Shown here one piece after another: positions 7,300 to 58,834 of a stretch of 64,000 nt of DNA. Under the pieces are notes generated by a model that was not told the DNA's origin, did no database searches, and saw only the letters and a program-made list of their open reading frames with translations. Origin of the DNA: an uncultured delta proteobacterium (lineage in GTDB: Bacteria; Desulfobacterota; Desulfobacteria; Desulfobacterales; UBA2156); assembly GCA_963736855.1 (NCBI GenBank), contig CAVTQK010000015.1, positions 640,001 through 704,000 of the forward strand, given 5' to 3'. Positions within the stretch are counted from its first letter, which is position 1, and every line of letters starts with the position of its first letter. The translations under genes were made by a program, and so were the position numbers.

Positions 7300-8115
7300 T
7301 CATCTCCAAATTTGTTGAAAAAAATTATAACAGCCATGAATTTCGGCAATAAAGTCAAGTTTCTTCCAATAATTATGTACGGATACCCTGTGCAAATCGT
7401 GAAAATCGATATTGCTTAATTTAATAATTCCTCTAAAGCAATTGAAAGAATAATCAAAATTATTCATAACAAACTCTTTAAGAGCTTTATTATAGCTATC
7501 CTTCCCACCAAAGGGATAGGCAAAGGTCTTGACGGTAATTCCAGTCTCCTTTTCTATATCAGCCTTTGACTGAGCAATTTCTTTTTTGGCAGCGTCAATA
7601 TCAATTGATGATAAAAAAGGGTGGGTTTGCGTATGGGCACCGATTAAGTGCCCTGCTTTAAGAAGTTTCCTTGTATGATCCCATGTCATCATTGGATATT
7701 TAACACCAAAGTTGGAGTATAGATAAGGCGAGTAATGTTGATCAAGGAATGAAGTGGTTATAAAAAAACACGCAGGGATTTTATAACGCTGAAGGATCGG
7801 AAATGCAGTCGTAAAATTGTCAAGATAACCATCGTCAAATGTCACTGCGATGTTGATTTTTCCAGGTTCGTTTTTTAGTTTTTTTAGATTATCAATTCTA
7901 ACAACAGAAAACCGGGAGGCAATATAGGACATCTGCCAGGAAAATTTTTCAATTGAAACAGAGAGGTTGCTTTGATCAATTTTGTTGCTGATACTGTGAT
8001 AAGTTAAAATTACTAAAGAAGCATGATTAAATTTATTAGAAATTGCCTTAAACGGAAGTAAGAGACCCCCTAAGACTAGCCGTAGAAAAGAATAATATAC
8101 TTCTTTATGGTTCAT
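7300..8115 (-). CDS. Polysaccharide deacetylase (CE4/NodB family)
   Basis: ILTYHSI, VTFDDGY, IGAHTQTHP and FAYPFG motifs. Confidence 0.9.
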   Translation of the reverse strand: MNHKEVYYSFLRLVLGGLLLPFKAISNKFNHASLVILTYHSISNKIDQSNLSVSIEKFSWQMSYIASRFSVVRIDNLKKLKNEPGKINIAVTFDDGYLDNFTTAFPILQRYKIPACFFITTSFLDQHYSPYLYSNFGVKYPMMTWDHTRKLLKAGHLIGAHTQTHPFLSSIDIDAAKKEIAQSKADIEKETGITVKTFAYPFGGKDSYNKALKEFVMNNFDYSFNCFRGIIKLSNIDFHDLHRVSVHNYWKKLDFIAEIHGCYNFFQQIWR

Positions 8116-8353
8116 CTGACTGAAGGAAACTTTTTGTCATGAAACGAGAAATATTGAAGATAATCGAAACCACGAACACTTGGAAAAACTAAAAAAACCA
8201 TCAATTGGTCCCGTATCGAATCCATTCTATCGAGCCATTATGTCGTAGGCACCATCGGGGAAGGCGCCGACGTCTATCCGTTGCTGCTGTATAAGTGCCT
8301 GCTCCTCCAATAATGGTTCTGGATTTCCTCTTATCCGGAACTGGAAAACCAAA

Positions 8354-8637
8354 TTCACCCGGTTAAATAAGATTTGAGTCTCCTTCTTAAAAAACATCCG
8401 GCCATGGTATGATTTTAAATATTTTTCACGCCTTGACGCGTCTTCCTGATGAATACAGGCTTCATAATAAATCAACTTCAATGGCCTCCTATCCTTGGTG
8501 GATTCCACAAGGCCTTTTTGATGCTGCTCAAATCTTTGCTTGAGGTTTTTCGAAATCCGACATAAAAATCACCGTCTTTTTCGCTTTGGAGAACGTATGT
8601 AAAAACCATCAAACCTCAAGCAATTTAACCGGGTAAA
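8354..8637. mobile_element. 284-bp element bounded by 15-bp inverted repeats and carrying only the GIY-YIG gene
   Basis: TTCACCCGGTTAAAT (8354-8368) and ATTTAACCGGGTAAA (8623-8637) are 14/15 complementary; IS5 transposase-like sequence lies on both sides. Confidence 0.65.
8355..8609 (-). CDS. Small GIY-YIG nuclease (about 84 aa), two apparent frameshifts
   Basis: Reconstructed MVFTYVLQSEKDGDFYVGF..NLKQRFEQHQKGLVESTKDRRPLKLIYYEAC...RREKYLKS...SYLTG*. Confidence 0.8.
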
Positions 8638-8944
8638 AAGAACTTCGAGAAAAAAGCCAAACCCCGGAAGGAAACTCGATAAAAACGGCAAGCCAAAAAA
8701 TTATACTCGAGATCTGGAATCCGGCTGGAATGCCAAGGATGAAAAGAATCCTCATTATGGGCTGAAAGAGCATACCTCGGTTTGAACGAAAAAAGGGTTA
8801 CATTGCACAAATCCGACCTCAAAATTTTCTGAAAAATTTTCCAAAAAGCTAAAATCCGAAATCCAGGTGATTTTTCAAACCTCTCAGCCTAAAAGAAACT
8901 GCCTCTACAGTGCCTCACAGAAATGAAATCTACGTCAAAACAAA

Positions 8945-10115
8945 TTAATAGCAATACTGCAGCATGTTTTCAGCCCAAGCCGACTCTGTTGGGAGCGGAG
9001 GGAGCGGTCTTGAAAAGAAATTTTCCCCTCGGACTCTTCTTAACATATCTATGACCGCCTGATAAAAACCTTGCTGACCATCGTGGGCAACTGTGACCCA
9101 TTCGGTATCATTTAATATCTCAACGACACCCGACTCATCACTCAACACAACACCCATTCTCCGATAGAGCGCTTCTATGGCGGGCAAGCCATACCCTTGC
9201 CGAGCCGGCATCAAGAACACATGACATTGATCATATAACTGGTTTAATATCTGGTTCGAAACAAAGCCGTGGAATCGAACCCGGTCGCTGATACCCAGGT
9301 TGCGGGCGTAGTTTTCGAGCTTTGATTTTTCCGGCCCATTTCCTACGATATTTAATCTCCAATTTTGGAATTCAGAACCACCTGAATTCCTAACCTCAGC
9401 TAACGCACCCAGAATCCAATCGATACGTTTGCTCGCCTGAAGCCGCGAAACGGACAGCAACTCAATCGGGTCATCCGGTCTGTCCGGTGCCTCATCTTAG
9501 AGGGGAACCAAAACCACCCAAATACATTACTTGGGCATCACGCCCATAGATGGCCTTCATTTCAGTCTGAAGGGCTTTTGTATTCGTAACGAACCGCTGA
9601 GCCCTCAATATTCCTCGCCTTGTTGCGAAATGCCTAATAGCCATAAATATCCTTACCCGCAATCGGGACAGCTTTGACCTACCACACGATATTTGCCCCA
9701 ATAAGCTATAAGTATCGGGTATTCTAATATGGTATGGCACATCAACCGACAATCCGGCATGGTAGGCCGATTGAATATTAAGTAGCAAGGGAGGAGGTGA
9801 CCCTTTTTTATGAAGACTATGCAGCGCCCGCCTGAGTGACAAACTTTTACTGAGAAAATTTCTCCTAGGCGTCAATTGATGAACCTGAACAGGCCACGAA
9901 GCATATTTATCGAGCCCTATATCATCGAAATAGCACAATATTGAATGAGAGCGCTCCGATTCATGTAACGCCTTAGATAAGGCCAGAATCACTCGCTCCT
10001 CCCCTCCAAATTCGATAAATTCAGGCTGAAATATTACAACATCGTCCGAGTTCGGGAACAATCTCGCAGATGCCTGTTTACTGAATAAGAACTCATGAGC
10101 AATCCTGGTGTTCAA
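8945..10115 (-). CDS. Glycosyltransferase family 4, frameshifted near 9490
   Basis: FGGEERV in the N-terminal ORF; SRLQASKRID, GNGP and QGYGLPAIEA in the C-terminal ORF. Confidence 0.8.
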
Positions 10116-10194
10116 TCAAAGCAATTTAGTAGTGGAGCAAGCATCCGGCTCGCTTGCCGTAAGAAATTTCGGTGATCAGACTACGTAGCCGTCA

Positions 10195-10867
10195 GGCGTC
10201 GCCAGACACCCATAACGGCTTCATCCTGGCTGCCACTTTGCCCTGCCTCGGAACACGATACCAATTATTTCCAATATTGCACCGCTTTCTCTCGGCCGAT
10301 ACGAAATGGCCGATTATAAAGGCGTACGCCGACAAGGCATATTTTGGAGAGCCAAAACGGCGCTTTCTTCTGCACAAAACAATTCGAAGACGGCATCATG
10401 AGAAAAGATACGACGACGGCCAAGTGACTCCCTATGAGAAAGCAAGAAACAAAAAGATTTCCAAAATCCGATACATCGTTGAAACGATACTTTGGACTGA
10501 GTCATCTTCACGATCATGCCTATCGGGCAAGGTTTACTACCATCGTTAAAAATAACCTCGACTGCTAGTGCAGACAGGTTTACCCCGTTACATTCCGAAG
10601 GACTATTAACCGGGGCAGGATTCAACATAAAACGAGGATTGAGAATTCTAAAGCTGGCGTTCATATAAATACAGCAGAGGTGTGTACAAAGAATAAAATC
10701 AAAAGAATTAAACATCGAAAATGATGAAATCGAAACGAAATAGAACCGCCATCTCTTTCGGCTTGAACGAAAAATTGGTCAAACCGGATAAAACGGCAAC
10801 AAAATTTTTCTGAAAAATCTCCTAAAAAGTTAAAATCCGAAATCTGAGTAAATTTTCAAACCTTTCA
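10195..10867 (+). mobile_element. Degenerate IS5-family element relic 2 (C-terminal transposase half plus end)
   Basis: DTHNGFILA, YADKAY, RNKKISKIRYIVE and GFNIKRGLRILK fragments with stops and frameshifts; shares its terminal ~110 bp with relic 1. Confidence 0.75.
10579..10617. repeat. About 37-bp palindromic insertion related to the GIY-YIG element termini
   Basis: TTTACCCCGTTACAT-tccgaaggac-TATTAACCGGGGCA; removing 37 nt restores the transposase frame (RQV/GFNIKRG). Confidence 0.6.
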
Positions 10868-11048
10868 GATTCCGGAGGACGTTCGAGTTTGCTTTGAGGC
10901 TGTAAATAATCGTATCGGTGTCGAGCAAAAACATCACAAACCTTTTCGGAGCTTGTGGGAAGCGCGGCGTGCATTTTTAAGTTCCGAAACGATTTGCGCT
11001 GCGGTCCGGGAATCTTCCCAAGAGCCTGCGAGAGAAAGAAGGGCTTGG
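10868..11048 (-). pseudogene. vapBC-like remnant: antitoxin C-terminus and PIN-toxin N-terminus
   Basis: QALLSLAGSWEDSRTAAQIVSELKNARR...* overlaps (TGATG) with MFLLDTDTIIYSLK, a typical PIN start; truncated at the IS end. Confidence 0.7.
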
Positions 11049-11051
11049 AAA

Positions 11052-11122
11052 GACGGGAATCCCGAGCTTGCTCCAAATCTCGTTCCGCCTGACGGAACCA
11101 GTCATGTGAACGATTCGGAATA
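11052..11122 (-). pseudogene. 5' fragment of a HEPN gene, paralogous to 13769..14158
   Basis: Close DNA match to about 14089-14160 (PNRSHDWFRQAERD); start codon lost. Confidence 0.75.
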
Positions 11123-11127
11123 TGTTT

Positions 11128-11158
11128 CTCACAGAGCCCATAGAGGGCGCAGAGGGTT
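11128..11158. repeat. Tripartite 9-mer repeat, copy 1
   Basis: CTCACAGAG CCCATAGAG GGCGCAGAG GGTT. Confidence 0.85.
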
Positions 11159-11328
11159 TTTCAGATTCGCAGGCTGCGCATTACATATTCGGCCAAATCC
11201 ACTCGTGAAACATCTGGGTTTTAGGCTATCATGTCGAGATAGAGAATCGATCAAGTAGCTTCATTATAAGACGTATAACGACGATGGATCATGTTCGGGG
11301 AAAAAGGTTTTACTTTTTGCCATTCCTT
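11128..11328. repeat. Direct repeat A, copy 1 (about 200 bp)
   Basis: Similar to 12845-13044, with scattered substitutions and one indel. Confidence 0.9.
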
Positions 11329-11696
11329 ATTTCCGAAAGTTCGTTGCTCATTTTTTGAATGGCTTCTCTTAGCCTTGGGATATGGTTCGCACAGATGTCA
11401 AAAATAATTTCATGGTCAACATGCTCGTAGTGGTGAGAAACCAGATCTCGAAACCGTGCAATCTTATCCCATTCGATCTCAGCATAACGGTTTAAAAATG
11501 GTAAATCCTTCTTCTGTATTTTCTTCACCGACTCACCGATGATTTGGAGCCTCATTGAAATTGCATCCAACAGTGTGACCCCATCCGATGTTGACACAAA
11601 ATCTCCAGATTCAGCGATCTTTGAAAATCGTTCCTGCACAAGGCTGATTGAGTCGAGCAAAACATCCAGAATCTCAACAATTTCATCTTCAGACAT
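11310..11696 (-). CDS. HepT-like DUF86 HEPN ribonuclease toxin
   Basis: LQIIGE and W..IARFRDLVSHHY (RX4HXY motif); overlaps the upstream MNT gene. Confidence 0.9.
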   Translation of the reverse strand: MSEDEIVEILDVLLDSISLVQERFSKIAESGDFVSTSDGVTLLDAISMRLQIIGESVKKIQKKDLPFLNRYAEIEWDKIARFRDLVSHHYEHVDHEIIFDICANHIPRLREAIQKMSNELSEIRNGKK

Positions 11697-11979
11697 AGTG
11701 GATATCTCTCTCAATTCGTTTTAAAAAGCGTTCGCTCAGCCCCTTCCTCTTACGAATTAGCTCGACCGGTTTCCCCAATCTGTTTTCGAGATATATATGC
11801 AGTCCGGCTAGGTAATCAAAACGAGCTTCGGTTAGTTCAACAAGCAAATCGATATCGCTATCGGGTTGGTGTGTTTCTTTCGCGTGGGAACCGAAAAGCC
11901 CGATGGCCAAGAGACCGTATTTATTCCTAAGATATTGCTTTTCTGAACGTAAAATATCCAATATTTCTTTGCTGGTCAT
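11689..11979 (-). CDS. MntA-like minimal nucleotidyltransferase antitoxin
   Basis: GLFGS...DSDIDLLVE (GSX10DXD); 96 aa. Confidence 0.9.
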   Translation of the reverse strand: MTSKEILDILRSEKQYLRNKYGLLAIGLFGSHAKETHQPDSDIDLLVELTEARFDYLAGLHIYLENRLGKPVELIRKRKGLSERFLKRIERDIHYV

Positions 11980-12002
11980 GATTTTTTTCGTAAGAGGGGC
12001 AT

Positions 12003-12033
12003 CTCACAGAGTTCGCAGAGGGCGCAGAGGGTT
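12003..12033. repeat. Tripartite 9-mer repeat, copy 2
   Basis: CTCACAGAG TTCGCAGAG GGCGCAGAG GGTT. Confidence 0.85.
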
Positions 12034-12188
12034 CAAGTGTTTGGAGAGAATCGATATCCTTATTTCTTCGACAAAGAAAGGTTTCGGAAATGCGTGTTCC
12101 ATTCTTTCAGGAGTCCTTTATTGTCGATTTTTTCCATCAGGACCCTGAAATCGATTTGATCTCCGGAGAGCTCAAGGATACCGCCGAT
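12003..12188. repeat. Direct repeat B, copy 1 (186 bp)
   Basis: Appears identical to 14165-14350 beyond the 9-mer motif. Confidence 0.9.
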
Positions 12189-12638
12189 ATCGTTTAAATG
12201 TTTTTCTGAACCGCCTTCATGATAATATTCCAGCTTGCGCAGAATAACATATTCAATGGGGGCGATCCAGATCGATTCCCCTTCAAAACGGATCTCTTTG
12301 CGCTTGTTGAGTGCCCACTGGTGAAGCTTGCTGTTGCCCATTGGGTAAATGTCGGCCTTGAAACCCGTTGTATGATGAATCAGGTTGAAGTGACCGCCTG
12401 ATGGCCTTGAAATTTCGATTTTGATGATTTCCGGTGGCGGGCAATAAAATTCTGAAAGAGGAAAGACTTCGGTAAAGCTTCCGATATTAAAGGGTTCCAG
12501 ATCGATCACAAGATCGAGGTCATGGGTTAAGCGGGGTTTACCGTATATAATGGACGCCATTGCCCCGGTGACCATGTAGCGAATTCTCAATTGGTTGAAC
12601 CGGGAGATGAATATTTTCAGAAGATCAAGTTCGGGCAT
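12060..12638 (-). CDS. Nucleotidyltransferase-fold protein, TA-like
   Basis: YMVTGAMAS..YGKPRLTHDLDLV N-terminal motif; KLEYY..GGSEKHLND. Confidence 0.7.
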   Translation of the reverse strand: MPELDLLKIFISRFNQLRIRYMVTGAMASIIYGKPRLTHDLDLVIDLEPFNIGSFTEVFPLSEFYCPPPEIIKIEISRPSGGHFNLIHHTTGFKADIYPMGNSKLHQWALNKRKEIRFEGESIWIAPIEYVILRKLEYYHEGGSEKHLNDIGGILELSGDQIDFRVLMEKIDNKGLLKEWNTHFRNLSLSKK

Positions 12639-12816
12639 AGAGGAATATTTCCTTGACCTTGTTTTGGATTTGTTCGTCCGTCCAATCGGGATGCTGCAGA
12701 CGCAACCCCGCTTCTTTCAGTTTATGTGCACAAGAATACAGATCCAGAAAAAGCCTTAGTTTTTGTTCCGGATTTAATTTTTTTAGGAAATCATTTTGAG
12801 ATGGATTTTCTGTCAT
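12625..12816 (-). CDS. Small partner protein (about 63 aa) of the downstream nucleotidyltransferase
   Basis: PEQKLR...AGLRLQHPDWTDEQI; overlaps the next gene's start. Confidence 0.65.
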   Translation of the reverse strand: MTENPSQNDFLKKLNPEQKLRLFLDLYSCAHKLKEAGLRLQHPDWTDEQIQNKVKEIFLYART

Positions 12817-12844
12817 TCCAATGGCTCTAATTTTTCTTCGGTCC

Positions 12845-12875
12845 CTCATAGAGTTCACAGAGGACGCAGAGGGTT
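12845..12875. repeat. Tripartite 9-mer repeat, copy 3
   Basis: CTCATAGAG TTCACAGAG GACGCAGAG GGTT. Confidence 0.85.
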
Positions 12876-13044
12876 TTTCAGATTCGCAGGCTGCGCATTA
12901 CACATTCGGCCAAATCCACTCGTGAAACATCTGGGCTCAGGCTATCGCGTCGGGATAGTGAATCGATCAAGTAGCTTCACTATAAGATGTAGAACGACGA
13001 TGGATTATGTTCGGAGAAAAAGGTTTTACTTTTTGCCATTCCTT
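12845..13044. repeat. Direct repeat A, copy 2
   Basis: Matches 11128-11328 and includes the last codons (RNGKK*) of the DUF86 gene. Confidence 0.9.
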
Positions 13045-13061
13045 TGATGTGTTCTCCGCGT

Positions 13062-13388
13062 TCACGACCTGTGTTTATTCGGGTTTAATCCCTTTGTTGA
13101 AAATTTAAGCAACAAAACCGACTCTCGCGCTTTTTCCACCAAGCGGACTTTTTCTGGCCAAGTGAGCGCACGGAGGTTTTTTTGCCGGAGGGCATACCGA
13201 TTCAGCAAAAACGATATTTCATTTAATACATAAAGCCCTTCTGACTCTGGCACCCCAACCAAAACATCAATATCCAAAGTTGCTACCGGTTCGGCATACC
13301 GTATCTGCGCCATTGCGCCAAATATGGCGTAATTGATGATCACCTCCTTCTTGACCATCTCATTCAGCAATTCAGCTAGTTCTTTCAC
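13062..13388 (-). pseudogene. Probable deletion fusion: nucleotidyltransferase N-terminus joined to a small partner protein
   Basis: YAIFGAMAQIRYAEPVATLDIDVLV (NTase-like start) followed after about 58 aa by unrelated RQKNLRALTWPEKVR; too short for a full NTase of this type. Confidence 0.5.
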
Positions 13389-13446
13389 ATCACCTCTCTT
13401 TAAGAAAGATAGGTATTGCGATTAAAGGTATCTTGCTGTCTATTTA

Positions 13447-13812
13447 TCACTGGTCACGCTCATAGACCCAGTTTACCTCTTCAAGCAGCATTCGGCTGAA
13501 GCGAGTGTTCGGATCCATTGCTTTCCACTCTGAAAGGGTATAGACTAGCACATCTGCAGGAACCGGCAGCTCGGAAGTGTCCCAGGCGATCCCTCGGCGC
13601 ACAAAAGGTTCATTGGACTTTTCCACAATAATAATGAGATCCAGGTCGCTTCCCACGCCCCAGTCACTTCGTGCCAAAGAGCCAAAATACCCGATACGTA
13701 CCACTTCGGGTCTCATGGCAGCGACCTCTGCCGCCCAAGTCTCAAGGCGGCGCACCACTGTATCTTGATCAGGCCATCGCATTACGGACGAAGTCAAGGA
13801 TCTCACCGGCAT
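13447..13812 (-). CDS. Minimal nucleotidyltransferase (MNT) protein
   Basis: GYFGSLARSDWGVGSDLDLII and PADVLVYT; start at MPVRSL. Confidence 0.85.
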   Translation of the reverse strand: MPVRSLTSSVMRWPDQDTVVRRLETWAAEVAAMRPEVVRIGYFGSLARSDWGVGSDLDLIIIVEKSNEPFVRRGIAWDTSELPVPADVLVYTLSEWKAMDPNTRFSRMLLEEVNWVYERDQ

Positions 13813-14158
13813 ATTGGATCGCCTCTTTACTTTGTAAAGGTCCATAATGTTCAAAGGGCGCCCCTTCCGGATGCCCGTTTGGGTATCGTGGCGGAATGTA
13901 ATAGGCATCGAGAACCCGGCCTTTCTCGATAAGATCTTCAGGGATGCGGATTGTTTTCGGCAGTTCGATCAGAAGTTTGGCGATCACGTGGCCCCACGCC
14001 TCTTGGCCCAACTTCAGATGAAGCGCTTTCACCACCTTTTCCGCTGACTGCTGAGCCGCAAAACATGCCCATTCATGCCGGCCGGAAAGACGAGAATCCC
14101 TGGCCTGGTCTAAATCCCGTTCCGCCTGACGGAACCAATCATGTGAACGATTCGGCAT
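13769..14158 (-). CDS. HEPN domain protein
   Basis: WFRQAERDL, ACFAAQQSAEK, WGH and YYIPPRYP. Confidence 0.9.
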   Translation of the reverse strand: MPNRSHDWFRQAERDLDQARDSRLSGRHEWACFAAQQSAEKVVKALHLKLGQEAWGHVIAKLLIELPKTIRIPEDLIEKGRVLDAYYIPPRYPNGHPEGAPFEHYGPLQSKEAIQYAGEILDFVRNAMA

Positions 14159-14164
14159 GTGTTC

Positions 14165-14195
14165 CTCACAGAGCGCGCAGAGGGCGCAGAGGGTT
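14165..14195. repeat. Tripartite 9-mer repeat, copy 4
   Basis: CTCACAGAG CGCGCAGAG GGCGCAGAG GGTT. Confidence 0.85.
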
Positions 14196-14350
14196 CAAGT
14201 GTTTGGAGAGAATCGATATCCTTATTTCTTCGACAAAGAAAGGTTTCGGAAATGCGTGTTCCATTCTTTCAGGAGTCCTTTATTGTCGATTTTTTCCATC
14301 AGGACCCTGAAATCGATTTGATCTCCGGAGAGCTCAAGGATACCGCCGAT
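14165..14350. repeat. Direct repeat B, copy 2, carrying an orphan 3' end of gene 12060..12638
   Basis: Matches 12003-12188. Confidence 0.9.
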
Positions 14351-14428
14351 TTTGAATAGATTCCAATACCGATGTCACTAAGACCTCGTTCCAAGTAAAT
14401 AACAAGGGACTTTTGAAATTTGATTACC

Positions 14429-14833
14429 CTAAAAAAGCTTATTGCGAACAAAGGCCAGTGTCAGATCCGCCATGCGAAGAACTTCCAGGGCAACCGGCTT
14501 GGTATAAATTTTTGCCGGAATGCTATCCGGCAATCCATTCGGATAGCGAGTTGGTATATAATAGGCGTCCAGAGGGGCAATTTTTTCTCGAAGTTCGTCA
14601 AATCCTTTATCAATTTCTGAAGCCCATCGACAAAGAGCCTCAACAGAATGGCCGACAACGAATTCTTCACCTTGCGCATAGAGAAATGCTTTGAGAGCTT
14701 TTTCGGCGATTTGTTGACCGACAAAACACGCTAAATGATAGCTGCCACCATCGAAGAGCAATTTCGCCCCTTTTCTGTCGGCTTCGGCTTGTTCTATCCA
14801 GCGGAGGCCTTCGGCCATAGCATCACGCTTCAT
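14429..14833 (-). CDS. HEPN domain protein
   Basis: WIEQAEAD, ACFVGQQIAEKALKA, GHS and YYIPTRYP. Confidence 0.9.
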   Translation of the reverse strand: MKRDAMAEGLRWIEQAEADRKGAKLLFDGGSYHLACFVGQQIAEKALKAFLYAQGEEFVVGHSVEALCRWASEIDKGFDELREKIAPLDAYYIPTRYPNGLPDSIPAKIYTKPVALEVLRMADLTLAFVRNKLF

Positions 14834-15200
14834 AGAGGATTCTCCCCGTCTTCATCGCACGTTTGAGGAAAGGGTTGTCTTTCATTTTTTTTATTTCTTC
14901 AGGGGTATATACGAGCAAGTCGACTCCGATCCTCGGTTTCAATTGCCGGTAAACCGCACCTGTTCTGTCGAGAAAATCCAGTCCGCTGTCGATAACAATA
15001 ATGAGATCCAAATCACTGGAAAGGGCGGTATTGCCGCTGGCAACGGAGCCGAAAAGAATGACTTTCCGGGCTCCCATTTTCACTGCTTCAAGGGTTAACC
15101 GCTCGGCCTCTTCATGCAGGTGTTGTATATGGGATTCTTTCCGGCTTTTTAAACGATCCCTCAACTGCTTGGTCTGGTGATAGTTCATCTGACCGGTCAT
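14823..15200 (-). CDS. Minimal nucleotidyltransferase (MNT) protein
   Basis: VILFGSVASG...SDLDLII and VDLLVYTPEE. Confidence 0.88.
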   Translation of the reverse strand: MTGQMNYHQTKQLRDRLKSRKESHIQHLHEEAERLTLEAVKMGARKVILFGSVASGNTALSSDLDLIIVIDSGLDFLDRTGAVYRQLKPRIGVDLLVYTPEEIKKMKDNPFLKRAMKTGRILYEA

Positions 15201-15338
15201 CGGCTTTTCGATTGGATTTTATGCCGGAAACACATCGATTTGGAGAAATGAGCGCGTTCGATGCGCATAGCTCCGCTTGGTTGATATCCGAATCGATAAC
15301 GGCATAATACTTTGATTTTATATGAAATATGTTAAGTA

Positions 15339-15530
15339 TGATGAAATCGTAACAAAGCTATTTTTGCTCGCTTCGTGACCATTTTCGGGAGATGCTCACG
15401 GCTTCTCTAAATTTCAAGAACTCGGCGCAAGCGCCTCAAACAGCTTGAAATTATTAACGCTCAGCCGTTCGCATCTCTTTTTCCGAAAATGCTCAAACCT
15501 CGCTTGCAAAAGCTTTTTACGAAGCCATCA
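15339..15530. mobile_element. MITE-like element, core type B
   Basis: Termini TGATGAAATCGTAA and TTTTTACGAAGCCATCA; flanks AGTA/AATA; long internal hairpin. Confidence 0.75.
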
Positions 15531-15771
15531 AATATGAATCCGAAAAATCAGCTCAATAAAAGACGGATTGCAGTACGCTTTAAAAACAGTGCCAAGCCCT
15601 TGAATCTGTTAACAGCAAATCGCATGATTTTAAATGGATAAGCCTATCATTAAAAACTAAAGTAAGAGAAAAATATCTTAAATCGATAAAATAGGCAATA
15701 AAATAATATGGTTTCCTGTTGTTCGATCGATATGGCAAAAGAGTAGAAGGAGGGTAGAAAAAGGCAAAAAA

Positions 15772-17072
15772 TTACCGACCATGCTTAGATTCGGGGGAGG
15801 CGGCAATCGCCATGATAACCGTGAACAACAGGGCGTTGGCTGGAATATGAAGATTGAAATCGGAGATGCTGTGGACCATAATGGCGACGATGCCTGCCAT
15901 GGCCCCGGCCGTGGTTCCCAACGTCAGTCCGCTATGATTGGGTAATTTTTGAAACCCGATGCGAAATAGCAAAAACAGTCCCCAGATCACAATGGGTATC
16001 CAAAAAACGCCCAACTCAGCGGTGAATTGAAGATAATCGTTGTGCGCGTTATAAAATCGAGCCCAAAAACCCGGAGGCTGATACTGGGTAAAAATCGTTG
16101 AAAAGGTCCCCGGACCGCTTCCCAGCAAGGGATAATCGAGAATCAAATTCAGAATCCCTTTCCAGGCGGTGACGCGACTTTGATAAGAGCCGATTTTTTC
16201 TTTCTGCTCGAAAGTGAGGACCCTTTCCACGGTCGTTTCGCTGGAAAGTGTGATGATACCGAACAGGAAGATGGCAGCAATACATATCAGAAGGATCTTT
16301 TTAATGCTCAGAGACTGTTTTGCGCGCATGATAAGCAGGATAAAAAAGGCGCTCCCGGATTAATGCCCCGATCCAACCGCCCCTGGAAAGTGATAAAAGC
16401 AGGGCTGTCACCAAAAAGGTCAGGAGAACAGAAAAAAGTACAAATTGGCCTCGTTTCAAGCCTGATGCAAGCATTCCCAAGAGCAGAGGAATAGCCATCT
16501 CCATATACCCGGCAAAATGGTTATAATGAAAGTAGGTGGAAGTCAGAGCATCGTTGAGGTACTCTCCATGATGTCTCGTAGGCCCACCATGAAAAGGGAT
16601 TGGCGCCGGCCCATTTGAATAGGCCGAAGACCGCCAAGAAAGTCGCAACACTTACGATCATAATAACGAGAGTGTGGATATGTTTTTTTTGATTACAGAC
16701 CTGGATGACCAGAAAATAGATTGCAATATAATTGACCAATTCCACAACGGCCCAAAAAGAAAGACCTCGATGGACGGAATTAAGACCGGAAATGAGGCTC
16801 AGAAGCAGAATTGCTGCAATGGGTTTTGTCAGAGGGGTTATAGTCCATTTTCCATCCCACCTGAAGATCTTTTCCATAAAGAAGCTTGCCAGGGCCATGA
16901 GGGTAAGGATATGCATGAGGGTGATCGCCCAAGCCGGGACGGATCCTTTAGGAAGAGGGGTGATGATGAGCAGCAGATAGATGAGAAGACGAGGCAGCAT
17001 CCCCGGACTTATTATTTTCTTGCCGTCCGGCGAGTGCGCTGCATGATTGCTTTGAATGGAATTCACGCTCAT
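15772..17072 (-). CDS. O-antigen ligase (Wzy_C) family membrane protein, split by two frameshifts
   Basis: NHFAGYME, LSLSRGGW, LLGSGPGTF and AHNDYLQ..AELG motifs across three ORFs. Confidence 0.85.
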
Positions 17073-18628
17073 CAGTTACGGATTCTTTGGAGGTCCTTCA
17101 AGAGGGAATTGTATTTTTTCTGGAGTTCCGAATCTTTCGGATCGAGGCTTAAAGCCCGTTGGTAATATCGGGCGGCTTCTTCCCATCGCCCCATCCGGTG
17201 CAAGGCATCCCCGGCCCAATTCGGATAGTCCGGGTTTTTGGGGTCCAGGTTTGCCGCCTGATCCCAGTCAGCAAGTGCTCCGGGATAGTCTTCTTTTTGC
17301 CACCGGATCCAGGCCCTATGGCTGAACAGCCATGATCGTGACTCTTTGGAATGGGCAATGGCAAGGTCTGCTTCTTTTTCAGCGTCATCGATCTTTTTAA
17401 GCCTTTCAAGCACTTCGGAAAACTTGAAATGATACCAGTAACTTTCTGGATCATGGACTGTCGCCTTCTGGATGAAGCGTTCCATGGAATCCCAGTCTTT
17501 TTCATTTTCGGCAATTTCCGACAAAAGATAAAAAGCCTCACCGGAAGGAGTTTGTTGCGATAAAGATGTCAATATTTCTTTTGCCGGAATGAAGTTTTTT
17601 AACTTGATATGAACGCGTGCGGCATAAAGGTCGGCTTCCGCGAAAAGCAGTCTTTTTGTTTTGGCTTCTTTCAAGACCGATAAGAATGCTTCAAGCTTGC
17701 CTGATTCTTCGCAGATCCAATAGACCGAATCGAGTGCTTCAGCTTTATTTCTGCTTGAAAGTAATGCATTGATAAAGGCCTGTGTTGCCTTTTCGATATT
17801 TCCTGCGGCAAGGTAAAGCTTTACCAAACGGATATGGTCATGGGCGCCTATTTCGGGTTCAAGCTCCAGGCTCTTCATAAGATGGACTATCGCTTCCTGG
17901 TAATGCTTCTCTTGTTCCAGGATGTCGGATAATACAGCGTGTGCGCTTTTAGCCGTGGAGCTGTGTTCAATGGCTTTTATCACACCGGATTTAAATGCCG
18001 ACCGGATATTGTTTGACCAAAACGGTTCTTTCGTTATTCTATGATAGGCGTCAGGATAGACACGGCCAAGATCATGGATTGTTTTCTCCAATGCAGATGG
18101 TTGATTTTCTGTGTAAAGGTACTCTGCCAGGGCAAAATGGTACTGGGCGGTGTTCGGTGCGAGTTCGATCGCTTTTTGGAAATGGGAAAGAGCATTCAAT
18201 GCACCGCTTGGGAAAGACTTTCCCGTGAAAAGAGCAAGCTGTTCGAGCCGGGCTTCCGTTGATGCCAGGGAAAAGAAAAGAGAGGATTCCAGCGGATTTA
18301 AGGATGTTGCTTTTTTGAAGGACTCTTTTGCGGAAATGGTTATGGCAAAAGCGTCATTCAAGGGTTTGCTGTTTGCATACAGCCTGTATGCGTTTCCCAG
18401 GGCTTCCCAGTTCGAAGAATCCATTGGATTGAAACGAACCGCTTTTTTCAATCGAGAAACGGCCAATTCATACTGTTTGTTTTCAATGGCGTTTTTCCCT
18501 GTCAGATTAAAGAGTTGAGAAATAAAGATCTGAGAGAGGGCATAAAGAAGAATCAGGGAAATGCCGGGCACGAGAAAGGCGAGAAAAACTTTTAGAGGTC
18601 GTTTCATGGAAGCGATCGGGTGATGCAA
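17072..18628 (-). CDS. Membrane-anchored TPR protein
   Basis: N-terminal TM segment; repeated TPR patterns (A...P, LG..Y). Confidence 0.85.
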   Translation of the reverse strand: MHHPIASMKRPLKVFLAFLVPGISLILLYALSQIFISQLFNLTGKNAIENKQYELAVSRLKKAVRFNPMDSSNWEALGNAYRLYANSKPLNDAFAITISAKESFKKATSLNPLESSLFFSLASTEARLEQLALFTGKSFPSGALNALSHFQKAIELAPNTAQYHFALAEYLYTENQPSALEKTIHDLGRVYPDAYHRITKEPFWSNNIRSAFKSGVIKAIEHSSTAKSAHAVLSDILEQEKHYQEAIVHLMKSLELEPEIGAHDHIRLVKLYLAAGNIEKATQAFINALLSSRNKAEALDSVYWICEESGKLEAFLSVLKEAKTKRLLFAEADLYAARVHIKLKNFIPAKEILTSLSQQTPSGEAFYLLSEIAENEKDWDSMERFIQKATVHDPESYWYHFKFSEVLERLKKIDDAEKEADLAIAHSKESRSWLFSHRAWIRWQKEDYPGALADWDQAANLDPKNPDYPNWAGDALHRMGRWEEAARYYQRALSLDPKDSELQKKYNSLLKDLQRIRN

Positions 18629-23814: not shown

Positions 23815-23860
23815 ACAAAATAGATGGCCGGCGCACTCAAAATTCATGCCGGCCATTTTT
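23815..23860 (-). terminator. Probable intrinsic terminator
   Basis: 9-bp stem ATGGCCGGC/GCCGGCCAT with T-rich tails on both strands. Confidence 0.45.
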
Positions 23861-24014
23861 GATGGCTTCGTAAAAAGTCCATCTGCTGCGTTGCACTGCA
23901 TCCTTCGTCATTGCGGCGTACCCATATGTATGCCTCATTCCTCAGGATTTGCGCGCCTTGCATCTGAAGCTTTTTACTTTGCCATCCTAATTTTGACTTT
24001 TTACAATTTCATCA
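23860..24014. mobile_element. MITE-like element, core type A (155 bp)
   Basis: TGATGGCTTCGTAAAAAGT...ACTTTTTACAATTTCATCA; TTTT on both flanks; four near-identical copies in the window. Confidence 0.85.
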
Positions 24015-24040
24015 TTTTTCAGGGTCATTAAAATTCTAAC

Positions 24041-28673: not shown

Positions 28674-28684
28674 CGCGTTAAATT

Positions 28685-28839
28685 GGATGGCTTCGTAAAA
28701 AGTCCATCTGCTGCGTTGCACTGCATCCTTCGTTATTGCGGCGTACCCACATGTACGCCTCATTCCTCAGGATTTGCGCGCCTTGCATCTGAAGCTTTTT
28801 ACTTTACCATCCTAATTTTGAGTTTTTACGATTTCATCA
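28685..28839. mobile_element. MITE-like element, core type A
   Basis: Copy of 23860-24014; AATT on both flanks. Confidence 0.85.
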
Positions 28840-38260: not shown

Positions 38261-38860
38261 TCAGAGATCCGATACCCCCAGAAGCTTATGGAGCCACCAA
38301 CGGTCATGTTCGGTTTCCAGGAGCGTTTCGGCGATTTGTTTTCCCAAAGCGCTTTGAACACGGTCTTTGACAAGGGGGATCCATTTTTTTGCATTTTGAT
38401 GCCCCATGTCCGCCAGGGCCTTGAGGTCGATCAGAAAGGCGAGCTGATCCGCATCTCGGGCAAGTACCGCTTCCTCTGTTCGGCCCTCGGCGAATTCCTG
38501 GAGCAGTGCAACAAGCGTTTTACCGAAGGGAAGCCCCTTAACGGTATCAGATAATGCAGTTTCGTCATCGGCTGTCACGTACTTTTTCTGCATATGGTTG
38601 AGATCACCGGTTCTTGTCTCTAAAAGATCATGTATAAGACACATATTGACAAGACGGGAAGCATCGATGCCCGGTCGCATTTGAGATAGGACAAATGCGA
38701 TGAGTGTGGTGATGAAGACATGCTCGGCAACGGATTCTTTTCCAGAACCGAGGAACTGATATCCTGACCGTGGAATTTTTTTCAGCATTGTCGCTTCAAA
38801 CAGGAAATCGCTGATAGCATCCATACTGAAATCCTCGTATTTACTGTGATCTTCACTCAT
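38261..38860 (-). CDS. HD-domain phosphohydrolase (5'-deoxynucleotidase-like)
   Basis: RSG...ESVAEH, IHDLLE.RTGD and ARDADQL. Confidence 0.88.
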   Translation of the reverse strand: MSEDHSKYEDFSMDAISDFLFEATMLKKIPRSGYQFLGSGKESVAEHVFITTLIAFVLSQMRPGIDASRLVNMCLIHDLLETRTGDLNHMQKKYVTADDETALSDTVKGLPFGKTLVALLQEFAEGRTEEAVLARDADQLAFLIDLKALADMGHQNAKKWIPLVKDRVQSALGKQIAETLLETEHDRWWLHKLLGVSDL

Positions 38861-38863
38861 TTT

Positions 38864-38936
38864 TGATGAAATCGTAAAAATTCAAAATTAGGATGGCAAA
38901 GTAAAAAGCTTCAATGGACTTTTTACGAAGCCATCA
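38864..38936. mobile_element. 73-bp internally deleted type A MITE, opposite orientation
   Basis: Both termini joined without the core; TTTT on both flanks. Confidence 0.8.
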
Positions 38937-39029
38937 TTTTCAACAATATGATATATAAATTCTGATTGGAAGCAAGTATAAATCCTTGACAGGTCTATGG
39001 AGTTCATATAGTTAGAAACTTCCAATATC

Positions 39030-47994: not shown

Positions 47995-48027
47995 GGGAGA
48001 TGTTTCCTTTCGACCATCAGTTATGCT

Positions 48028-48182
48028 TGATGGCTTCGTAAAAAGTCCATCTGCTGCGTTGCACTGCATCCTTCGTCATTGCGGCGTACCTATAAGTACG
48101 CCTCATTCCTCAGGATTTGCGCGCCTTGCATTTGAAGCTTTTTACTTTGCCATCCTAATCTTGAGTTTTTACAATTTCATCA
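48028..48182. mobile_element. MITE-like element, core type A
   Basis: Copy of 23860-24014; flanks TGCT/TGCC. Confidence 0.85.
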
Positions 48183-48416
48183 TGCCTTACTGATTACATT
48201 ATCACAGACGCACCGGTCTTCAAACCGGTTTTTCGTCGGACAGGAACGCAGAAGCCCCTTGCCCTATAGATGCAAGCTGTCGATTTTACAGAAGACCTAT
48301 CATAAGTTCGGTTTACTGTTGAGACTCGGCGGTTTTTGGTGTAAAGCCCCTTGGCCGACTTAAAAGCAGGGAAAGAAGGGTTCAGGTTTTTAAGCGTCAA
48401 TAAGCGGAAGGTATAT

Positions 48417-58494: not shown

Positions 58495-58628
58495 AACAAA
58501 CCCCTTTATTTATTGGATGTTGAGAAATGGAACCTCTGACTTAAGCAAAATCACCTATCAAAATGCACTCATTTTGTAAAGAATTTTTTGGTTATGGGGC
58601 ATAATGCCTATATCCGTTGAAACAAGCA

Positions 58629-58783
58629 TGATGGCTTCGTAAAAAGTCCATCTGCTGCGTTGCACTGCATCCTTCGTCATTGAGGAGTACCCATATGTAC
58701 GACTCATTCCTCAGGATTTGTGCGCCTTGCATCTGAAGCTTTTTACTTTACCATCCTAATTTTGAGTTTTTACGATTTCATCA
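58629..58783. mobile_element. MITE-like element, core type A
   Basis: Copy of 23860-24014; flanks AGCA/GGCA. Confidence 0.85.
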
Positions 58784-58834
58784 GGCATGAGGAAGGAAAT
58801 CTCTTTAAAAAAAGGATTCCTCGGCACGGAAGCC

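Follow-up and report, generated by a model that had tools for sequence, protein, structure and literature searches.

Permuted toxin–antitoxin gene junctions at apparent lone arms of a GxxExxY-associated repeat in an uncultured desulfobacterial genome

Copies of insertion sequences (IS) and of repetitive extragenic palindromic (REP) elements are named as hot spots of rearrangement (PMC11708052), and several processes acting on short repeats have been described, including slippage at repeats of <30 bp and unequal crossover (PMC2884548 and PMC13732712), microhomology-mediated tandem duplication (bioRxiv 10.64898/2026.02.28.708716), homology-facilitated illegitimate recombination (PMC2884548) and, during transformation of Streptococcus pneumoniae, the bringing in of merodiploid copies by repeats (PMC3784515). 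The RecA threshold of Escherichia coli lies at ~30 bp, and events at shorter repeats (variable segments, repeats of <30 bp) are ascribed to slippage (PMC2884548). Here, we describe an array of small toxin–antitoxin-type genes in an uncultured delta proteobacterium of the Desulfobacterales, within a window of 64,000 nucleotides (contig CAVTQK010000015.1, positions 640,001–704,000), in which a 31-nt motif stands at permuted gene junctions. Judged from sequence comparison, the array is best filed as repeat-mediated rearrangement, a known process, acting on arms that a widespread GxxExxY element has left as orphans.

The motif consists of AACC, three 7-nt CTCTRYG words at a 9-nt period, and AG. 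In its strict form it occurs four times in the 3.91-Mb genome, always within the array, and all four copies run in the same direction, 6–28 nt ahead of probable start codons, and share an unchanged 11-nt block. Mapping of repeat pairs by self-BLAST, followed by base-level alignment registers, bore out the arrangement given in a preliminary description of this DNA: a segment A precedes the motif twice, leading once to a small gene plus nucleotidyltransferase (NTase) module (12845) and once to a fragment of a HEPN gene (11128), while a segment B also precedes it twice, leading once to an MNT–DUF86 pair (12003; MNT, minimal nucleotidyltransferase) and once to an intact HEPN gene (14165). The base registers confirm that the same HEPN start (H) follows both A and B. 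Four junctions (A2–small+NTase, A1–H1, B1–MNT-HepT and B2–H2) link two upstream partners with three downstream partners, and on this mapping no fewer than two joins must have formed in the motif or at its edge, whichever three junctions are counted as ancestral.

Each repeat pair has one homology end at the motif edge, in keeping with the switch of homology at the motif that had been proposed. The A pair (11128–11328 and 12845–13044) carries 12 substitutions and one indel in 170 nt outside the motif, and the B pair (12003–12188 and 14165–14350) is identical at 155/155 positions outside it; both homologies end 2 nt beyond the third repeat unit. In the B pair, a 175-nt exact match runs through the second repeat unit, the sole two differences lying in the motif's second 2-nt spacer. 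The H pair (11047–11158 and 14084–14195) is identical at 70/81 positions outside the motif, and its homology begins 4 nt ahead of the first unit. The motif makes up 2.9% of the array, and the probability of at least three of six repeat ends falling on it is 4e-4, a rough guide only, as the ends are not independent. With divergences of 0% for B, ~8% for A and 14% for H, a single tandem duplication is insufficient, as the preliminary description had argued.

The array occupies window positions 10.87–15.2 kb on the minus strand, with all genes co-oriented, between an O-antigen ligase/export block on one side and glycosyltransferases on the other. In the direction of transcription, the order is MNT–HEPN, a 78-nt filler, B2, motif copy M4, HEPN (H2)–MNT, a fused NTase/small gene, A2, M3, the small gene–NTase pair S–N (ending in B1), M2, MNT–HepT, A1, M1, the H1 fragment, antitoxin/PIN fragments and an IS remnant:

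14429–15200, minus strand: upstream pair of MNT (14823–15200) and HEPN (14429–14833) genes, with no motif in front
14196–14350, minus strand: segment B2, an orphan exact copy of B1, joined off-motif to the 78-nt filler at its 5′ end (14350)
14165–14195, minus strand: motif copy M4 at the B2–H2 junction, the same as M2 up to the second spacer
13769–14158, minus strand: H2, intact HEPN gene (PF05168)
13447–13908, minus strand: MNT partner of H2, start probably near 13812
13062–13388, minus strand: 5′ end of an NTase gene and a small gene, fused in frame into a 108-aa chimeric open reading frame (ORF)
12876–13044, minus strand: segment A2, ~92% identical to A1; matches both sides of the broken GxxExxY gene of a sister genome
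12845–12875, minus strand: motif copy M3 at the A2–small+NTase junction
12625–12858, minus strand: small gene S, an antitoxin related to Rv0078B (PF18993), with its start probably at 12816
12060–12638, minus strand: NTase gene N, 192 aa, paired with S in 6/6 homologous loci examined
12034–12188, minus strand: segment B1, the last 43 codons of N plus spacer
12003–12033, minus strand: motif copy M2 at the B1–MNT-HepT junction
11689–11979, minus strand: MNT/MntA-like antitoxin
11310–11714, minus strand: HepT-like (DUF86) ribonuclease toxin
11159–11328, minus strand: segment A1, a mosaic that includes a decayed piece of HEPN, matched weakly, and the right-hand flank of a GxxExxY cassette since lost
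11128–11158, minus strand: motif copy M1 at the A1–H1 junction
11047–11121, minus strand: H1, the first 25 codons of a HEPN gene, start codon lost
10868–11046, minus strand: 3′ remnant of an antitoxin gene together with the 5′ part of a putative PIN/VapC-type gene, labelled by its motif; joined to H1 off-motif and cut by the IS remnant

The NTase gene N matched nothing in Pfam, NCBIfam or PADLOC, and its match to TM1012 in the PDB was non-significant (E 0.2). A plasmid search returned one distant HEPN–MNT match only.

The four motif copies allow the joins to be placed more closely. M4 agrees with M2 at every base as far as the second spacer and thereafter resembles M1, the other H-linked copy, so the B2–H2 join lies in 20 identical nt, the first 20 of the motif. 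M1 and M3 differ beyond their first 11 bases, and the A joins are probably located in those first 11 nt. Tracts of the kind expected of short-homology recombination are therefore present, 20 identical nt for B2–H2 and a compatible 11 nt for the A joins. The second spacer follows the downstream partner, being xG ahead of H and AA elsewhere. Segment A is a mosaic of decayed pieces. Segment B corresponds to the 3′-terminal part of the NTase gene, and its exact identity marks the B copy as recent. H1 and H2 are separated by seven synonymous and two non-synonymous differences, a synonymous excess with P ~0.001–0.004 if 25–30% synonymous changes are expected; because the differences are mostly synonymous, H1 was under selection for most of its divergence, and would represent either an allele brought in from elsewhere or a paralogue of long standing rather than a recent, decaying duplicate.

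The exactness of the B pair also bears on whether the order could stem from faulty assembly or from strains merged during co-assembly, since B1 and B2 share 175 exact bases, more than the length of a short read, and the A–motif and B–motif junctions gave 0 matches in the metagenome collection, which may omit the host genome's own records. We regard this explanation as very unlikely. The motif-only junctions share at most 11–17 identical bases, the A pair at most 38 and the H pair at most 20, which should not collapse, and a mis-resolved 175-nt B repeat would alter the order or excise a 2,162-bp circle, yet each of the four junction types would survive. The contig measures 791 kb, in a genome that is 100% complete with 2.8% contamination, and the same kind of mosaic occupies the same slot in a sister genome.

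Beyond the array, the motif was found in 76/301 genomes of the order, with up to 131 matches in one and often as inverted pairs, compared with two genomes for a reversed-pattern control. An inverted arm stands within 300 nt of 97 of the 261 distinct motif sites gathered from genomes, metagenomes and viral loci, and 12 of the 102 non-viral sites have a GxxExxY gene within 700 nt upstream. Conversely, among 30 GxxExxY loci, the right arm is of the motif type in 9/30, with the same word at about three 7-nt repeats and a 9-nt period after the gene; the left arm is of this type in 9/30 and both arms in 6/30. Many other GxxExxY loci show sister words, as judged by eye. By these comparisons, the motif is a lone right arm of a palindromic element, built of triple 9-base words, that brackets GxxExxY nuclease genes. 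It has no match in Rfam, and we found no published account of a GxxExxY-linked arm family in the literature.

The array shares its word, period and position after GxxExxY with the word-arm cassettes of this family (TIGR04256/PF13366) in the sister genome and other loci; it differs from them in having right arms only, in having lost the nuclease gene and in that its arms join unrelated cargo. The window contains no left arm, and no inverted copy was detected in 8001–16500 at ≤2 mismatches. Neither the GxxExxY gene nor remnants of it were detected in the window or the host genome.

An orthologous locus was found only in one sister genome (G003), among 11 family and 5 genus genomes. There, the slot is filled by a different array, in which an intact NTase/small-gene pair and the 5′ portion of A are followed by a GxxExxY gene in broken form (PF13366 and TIGR04256 matches) and by a single motif copy ~50 nt beyond the remains of that gene. 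The Pfam scan of motif-flanking ORFs covered 81 of 140 such ORFs plus four from the sister array, with long or opposite-strand ones mostly dropped, and serves for no frequency estimate. Segment A of the window matches the sister genome on both sides of the broken GxxExxY gene, and the match takes in the 13 nt that immediately precede the motif, which indicates that A with its motif is a deletion derivative of a GxxExxY cassette, the motif being its right arm. We infer that GxxExxY was lost before A1 and A2 diverged. Given this early loss and the exactness of the B copy, the latest crossover likely took place without GxxExxY, unless the junction was imported ready-made.

A further, different partner stands after the arm in the sister genome, and at other loci copies mostly share the upstream side and end 2–30 nt past the arm (46 upstream-only versus 20 downstream-only pairs). 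Both observations would fit an arm that is the outer end of a mobile unit, inserted or copied independently before different genes with no crossover inside the arm. Such insertion is an unlikely origin of the present array, as it fails to explain why the same HEPN start, at equal spacing from the arm, follows both A and B; moreover, B is the end of an NTase gene and not element sequence, and the second spacer behaves as expected from a crossover 5′ of it.

Not all joins in the array lie at the arm. Six off-motif junctions were mapped, at 14350, 13425, ~13220, the shared 5′ end of A (11328/13044), ~12918 and 11047, besides the IS end at 10867, and several of them cut genes. By comparison with the sister genome, the fused ORF at 13062–13388 arose when ~330 bp were deleted near 13220, and this junction shows an imperfect ~7-nt overlap with both of its parents in that genome; homology to the sister genome upstream of the ORF starts at 13425. 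At 11328, the 5′ end of A1 supplies the last HepT codons. The parent of the 78-nt filler next to 14350 was not found in 350 genomes, which yielded a single 29-nt match (E 5e-4). Once the duplicated A, B and H are set aside, no exact direct repeat in the array exceeds the 17 nt shared by a pair of motif copies, and the next longest has 14 nt.

We consider it probable that the array arose by host short-homology recombination between orphan arms, combined with illegitimate deletions, in a fast-turnover graveyard of toxin–antitoxin genes. The arms would act as the longest shared short homologies available to host recombination, and toxin–antitoxin modules would have acquired new neighbours through two or more crossovers within it, other joins falling off the arm. 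The ancestral slot would have read NTase–small gene–A–GxxExxY–arm, as it still does in the sister genome, with GxxExxY deleted before the divergence of A1 and A2. The older, diverged blocks (A1-M1-H1 versus H2...A2) would have been joined by import from relatives or by an old duplication, and the older difference between A–H and A–S would need a second arm crossover or an imported block. In the recent event, an unequal crossover between two arms would duplicate H2...B and yield B-M-H2, or, alternatively, a one-ended, homology-anchored copy would do so; a later deletion would leave the 155-nt B2 stub. The process may be replication slippage, sister-strand exchange or homology-facilitated illegitimate recombination, working on 11–20 identical bases in copies 0.84–2.2 kb apart, and would involve no dedicated enzyme. 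As the probable starts lie 6–28 nt downstream of the arm, joins there leave the following start region whole, which may favour their survival.

Such recombination resembles rearrangement at REP and other short repeats, where dispersed intergenic repeats likewise serve as crossover points, a duplication join resembles a circle junction and no dedicated enzyme is needed. It differs from REP systems in that the motif is a non-palindromic lone arm of three words, tied to GxxExxY and lacking a REP-associated tyrosine transposase (RAYT), and in that the rearranged cargo is an array of toxin–antitoxin modules; the genome's three PF01797 matches all lie far from the array. With homology-facilitated illegitimate recombination and the merodiploids of S. 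pneumoniae it shares a homologous end opposite an illegitimate one (B2 and possibly A1-M1-H1), and the placing of diverged alleles side by side; the anchors described for the merodiploids are truncated IS copies around duplications of 100–900 kb, as opposed to the 11–20 identical bases found here (PMC3784515).

Integron arrays, Acinetobacter pdif modules and shufflons offer another comparison, having in common with this locus co-oriented small toxin–antitoxin genes and a repeated element at some module borders. Integron attC sites carry complementary RYYYAAC/GTTRRRY cores and form a bottom-strand hairpin, the pdif/dif sites of XerC/D span 28 bp, in which a 6-bp spacer separates two inverted arms of 11 bp each, and shufflons have inverted site pairs and an adjacent Rci-type recombinase. 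None of these features marks the array, and most of its junctions are off-site. No attC-like match was detected in window 8001–16000, and the junctions do not fold (z −1.0 to +0.6 for 6/6 junction strands, versus −8.4 for a complete palindrome and −4.55 for an attC-like hairpin of the sister array). The motif consists of three direct words with no dyad, and its four copies are direct, with no recombinase beside them. Three homology ends fall at the motif, as against six junctions elsewhere plus the IS end. No IntI was found in C15:610–720 kb, where the nearest tyrosine recombinase is a weak match ~52 kb off. Four integron integrases above the TIGR02249 cut-off lie on other contigs (C21:744805, C24:200981, C22:4704 and C13:157249), and self-BLAST found no repeated attC-like sequence within 12 kb of them; an integrase from these contigs may nonetheless act on the array in trans.

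The sister genome's attC-like hairpin (L013:10440-10525) directly follows a small-gene and NTase pair, and one module of that array looks like a former integron cassette.

Of the preliminary proposal of repeated crossovers within the motif, the part that stands is the need for at least two joins within or at it; to read the motif as a dedicated cassette site is unsupported, given six off-motif junctions, no adjacent recombinase and a motif that is the lone arm of a widespread repeat. A dedicated-joint model, in which a GxxExxY nuclease or a host recombinase cuts the first repeat unit of each arm, so that arm-bounded units, unrelated toxin–antitoxin cargo among them, excise as circles and re-integrate at other arms, nevertheless deserves weighing, because several observations count against host short-homology recombination. 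A1-M1-H1 is the circle junction of an H2...A2 unit, and with H2...A2 taken out the array reads B-M-S again, which is in turn the circle junction of S-N-B. A single fixed block of 11 nt, invariant in the four copies, could accommodate both crossovers, and other exact 11–14-nt repeats in the array show no mapped use. Microhomology could be checked at one off-motif junction only, the parents of the others not having been found. In another genome (G056, locus L340), a 430-nt GxxExxY copy (98.8% identity) is bounded on either side by arms that carry a sister word: it starts at the outer end of one arm and stops inside the next direct arm, with different flanks. Finally, a loose arm detector placed 7/52 repeat ends at arms where 1.3 were expected, although this detector missed one of the window's own three ends and ignores the intergenic bias of both arms and repeat ends.

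In favour of dedicated joints also count the co-direction of all arms 6–28 nt ahead of probable start codons, and arms lying between GxxExxY and an NTase module at locus L109. Circle-type junctions are predicted by tandem duplication and cassette integration alike, and sequence alone cannot separate them. We judge dedicated joints to be improbable for the following reasons. A strict arm detector found 0/196 repeat ends at arms in 42 other loci, and among the four duplications containing GxxExxY in 23 loci just one ends inside arms. The host genome has no GxxExxY gene or remnant despite the recency of the latest event, no recombinase adjoins the array, and the stretches from arm to arm are patchworks of broken genes that include six off-motif junctions. 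The motif occurs in 0/80 loci of HEPN relatives and 0/6 loci of S–N relatives, on which grounds HEPN or S–N modules were rejected as dedicated cassettes. No second array with a permutation of unique sequence at exactly the same word was found.

Locus L340 is, from its sequence, the best other candidate for arm-bounded shuffling. A duplicated toxin–antitoxin pair there ends a few bases into the arm in one copy. Two arrays at L340:4200-8200 and 14800-18150 (G056:C35) contain GxxExxY, PIN-type toxin–antitoxin and small genes, word arms and an 84-bp tandem unit, and have common modules with different neighbours.

If host short-homology recombination at orphan arms is the correct explanation, the array would show cleanly, in nature, how a short dispersed repeat that a selfish element left behind becomes the crossover point at which neighbouring toxin–antitoxin genes are reordered. 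Its added value would be modest though genuine, namely crossovers mapped to the first 11–20 bases of an arm family for which no literature was found. The likely use of the arms after loss of the nuclease gene argues against a nuclease requirement. Were the arms instead joints read by an enzyme, they would represent a new integron-like route of gene capture in many anaerobic lineages, and an arm-based cassette system would explain the build-up of selfish-module arrays inside polysaccharide loci.

Further occurrences of the word repeats were seen elsewhere. A genome of the same order (G136) has 131 dispersed motif matches, mostly at one end of a repeated element, and the host genome contains three further loci with word-repeat arrays of 7-nt period (C15:730885-734439, C23:140366-151893 and C18:25930-28350). 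The same word triplet stands at gene borders of phage-like contigs in viral loci L138/L151/L255/L271, L143/L204/L159/L231 and others, where upstream genes vary between relatives and the third word sometimes enters the neighbouring reading frame. Numerous apparent switches at the motif in phage contigs, obtained when flanks were compared without gaps, proved on inspection to be mostly indel artefacts, and the comparison was redone with gapped alignment.

Around the array, decayed IS remnants with DDE similarity at 8179–8887 and 10172–10867 bracket two glycosyltransferase genes, and related remnants also lie at the edges of the array in the sister genome. Window 8227–8508 contains a weak GIY-YIG fragment. 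At the upstream edge of the array (15339–15531) is a ~193-bp repeat resembling a miniature inverted-repeat transposable element, with dozens of copies genome-wide in two identity classes, ~95% and ~78%. A second dispersed repeat of ~157 bp, ~95% identical between copies, occurs at window 23858–24015, 28683–28839, 48025–48185 and 58626–58786, with a partial inverted copy at 38851–38937.

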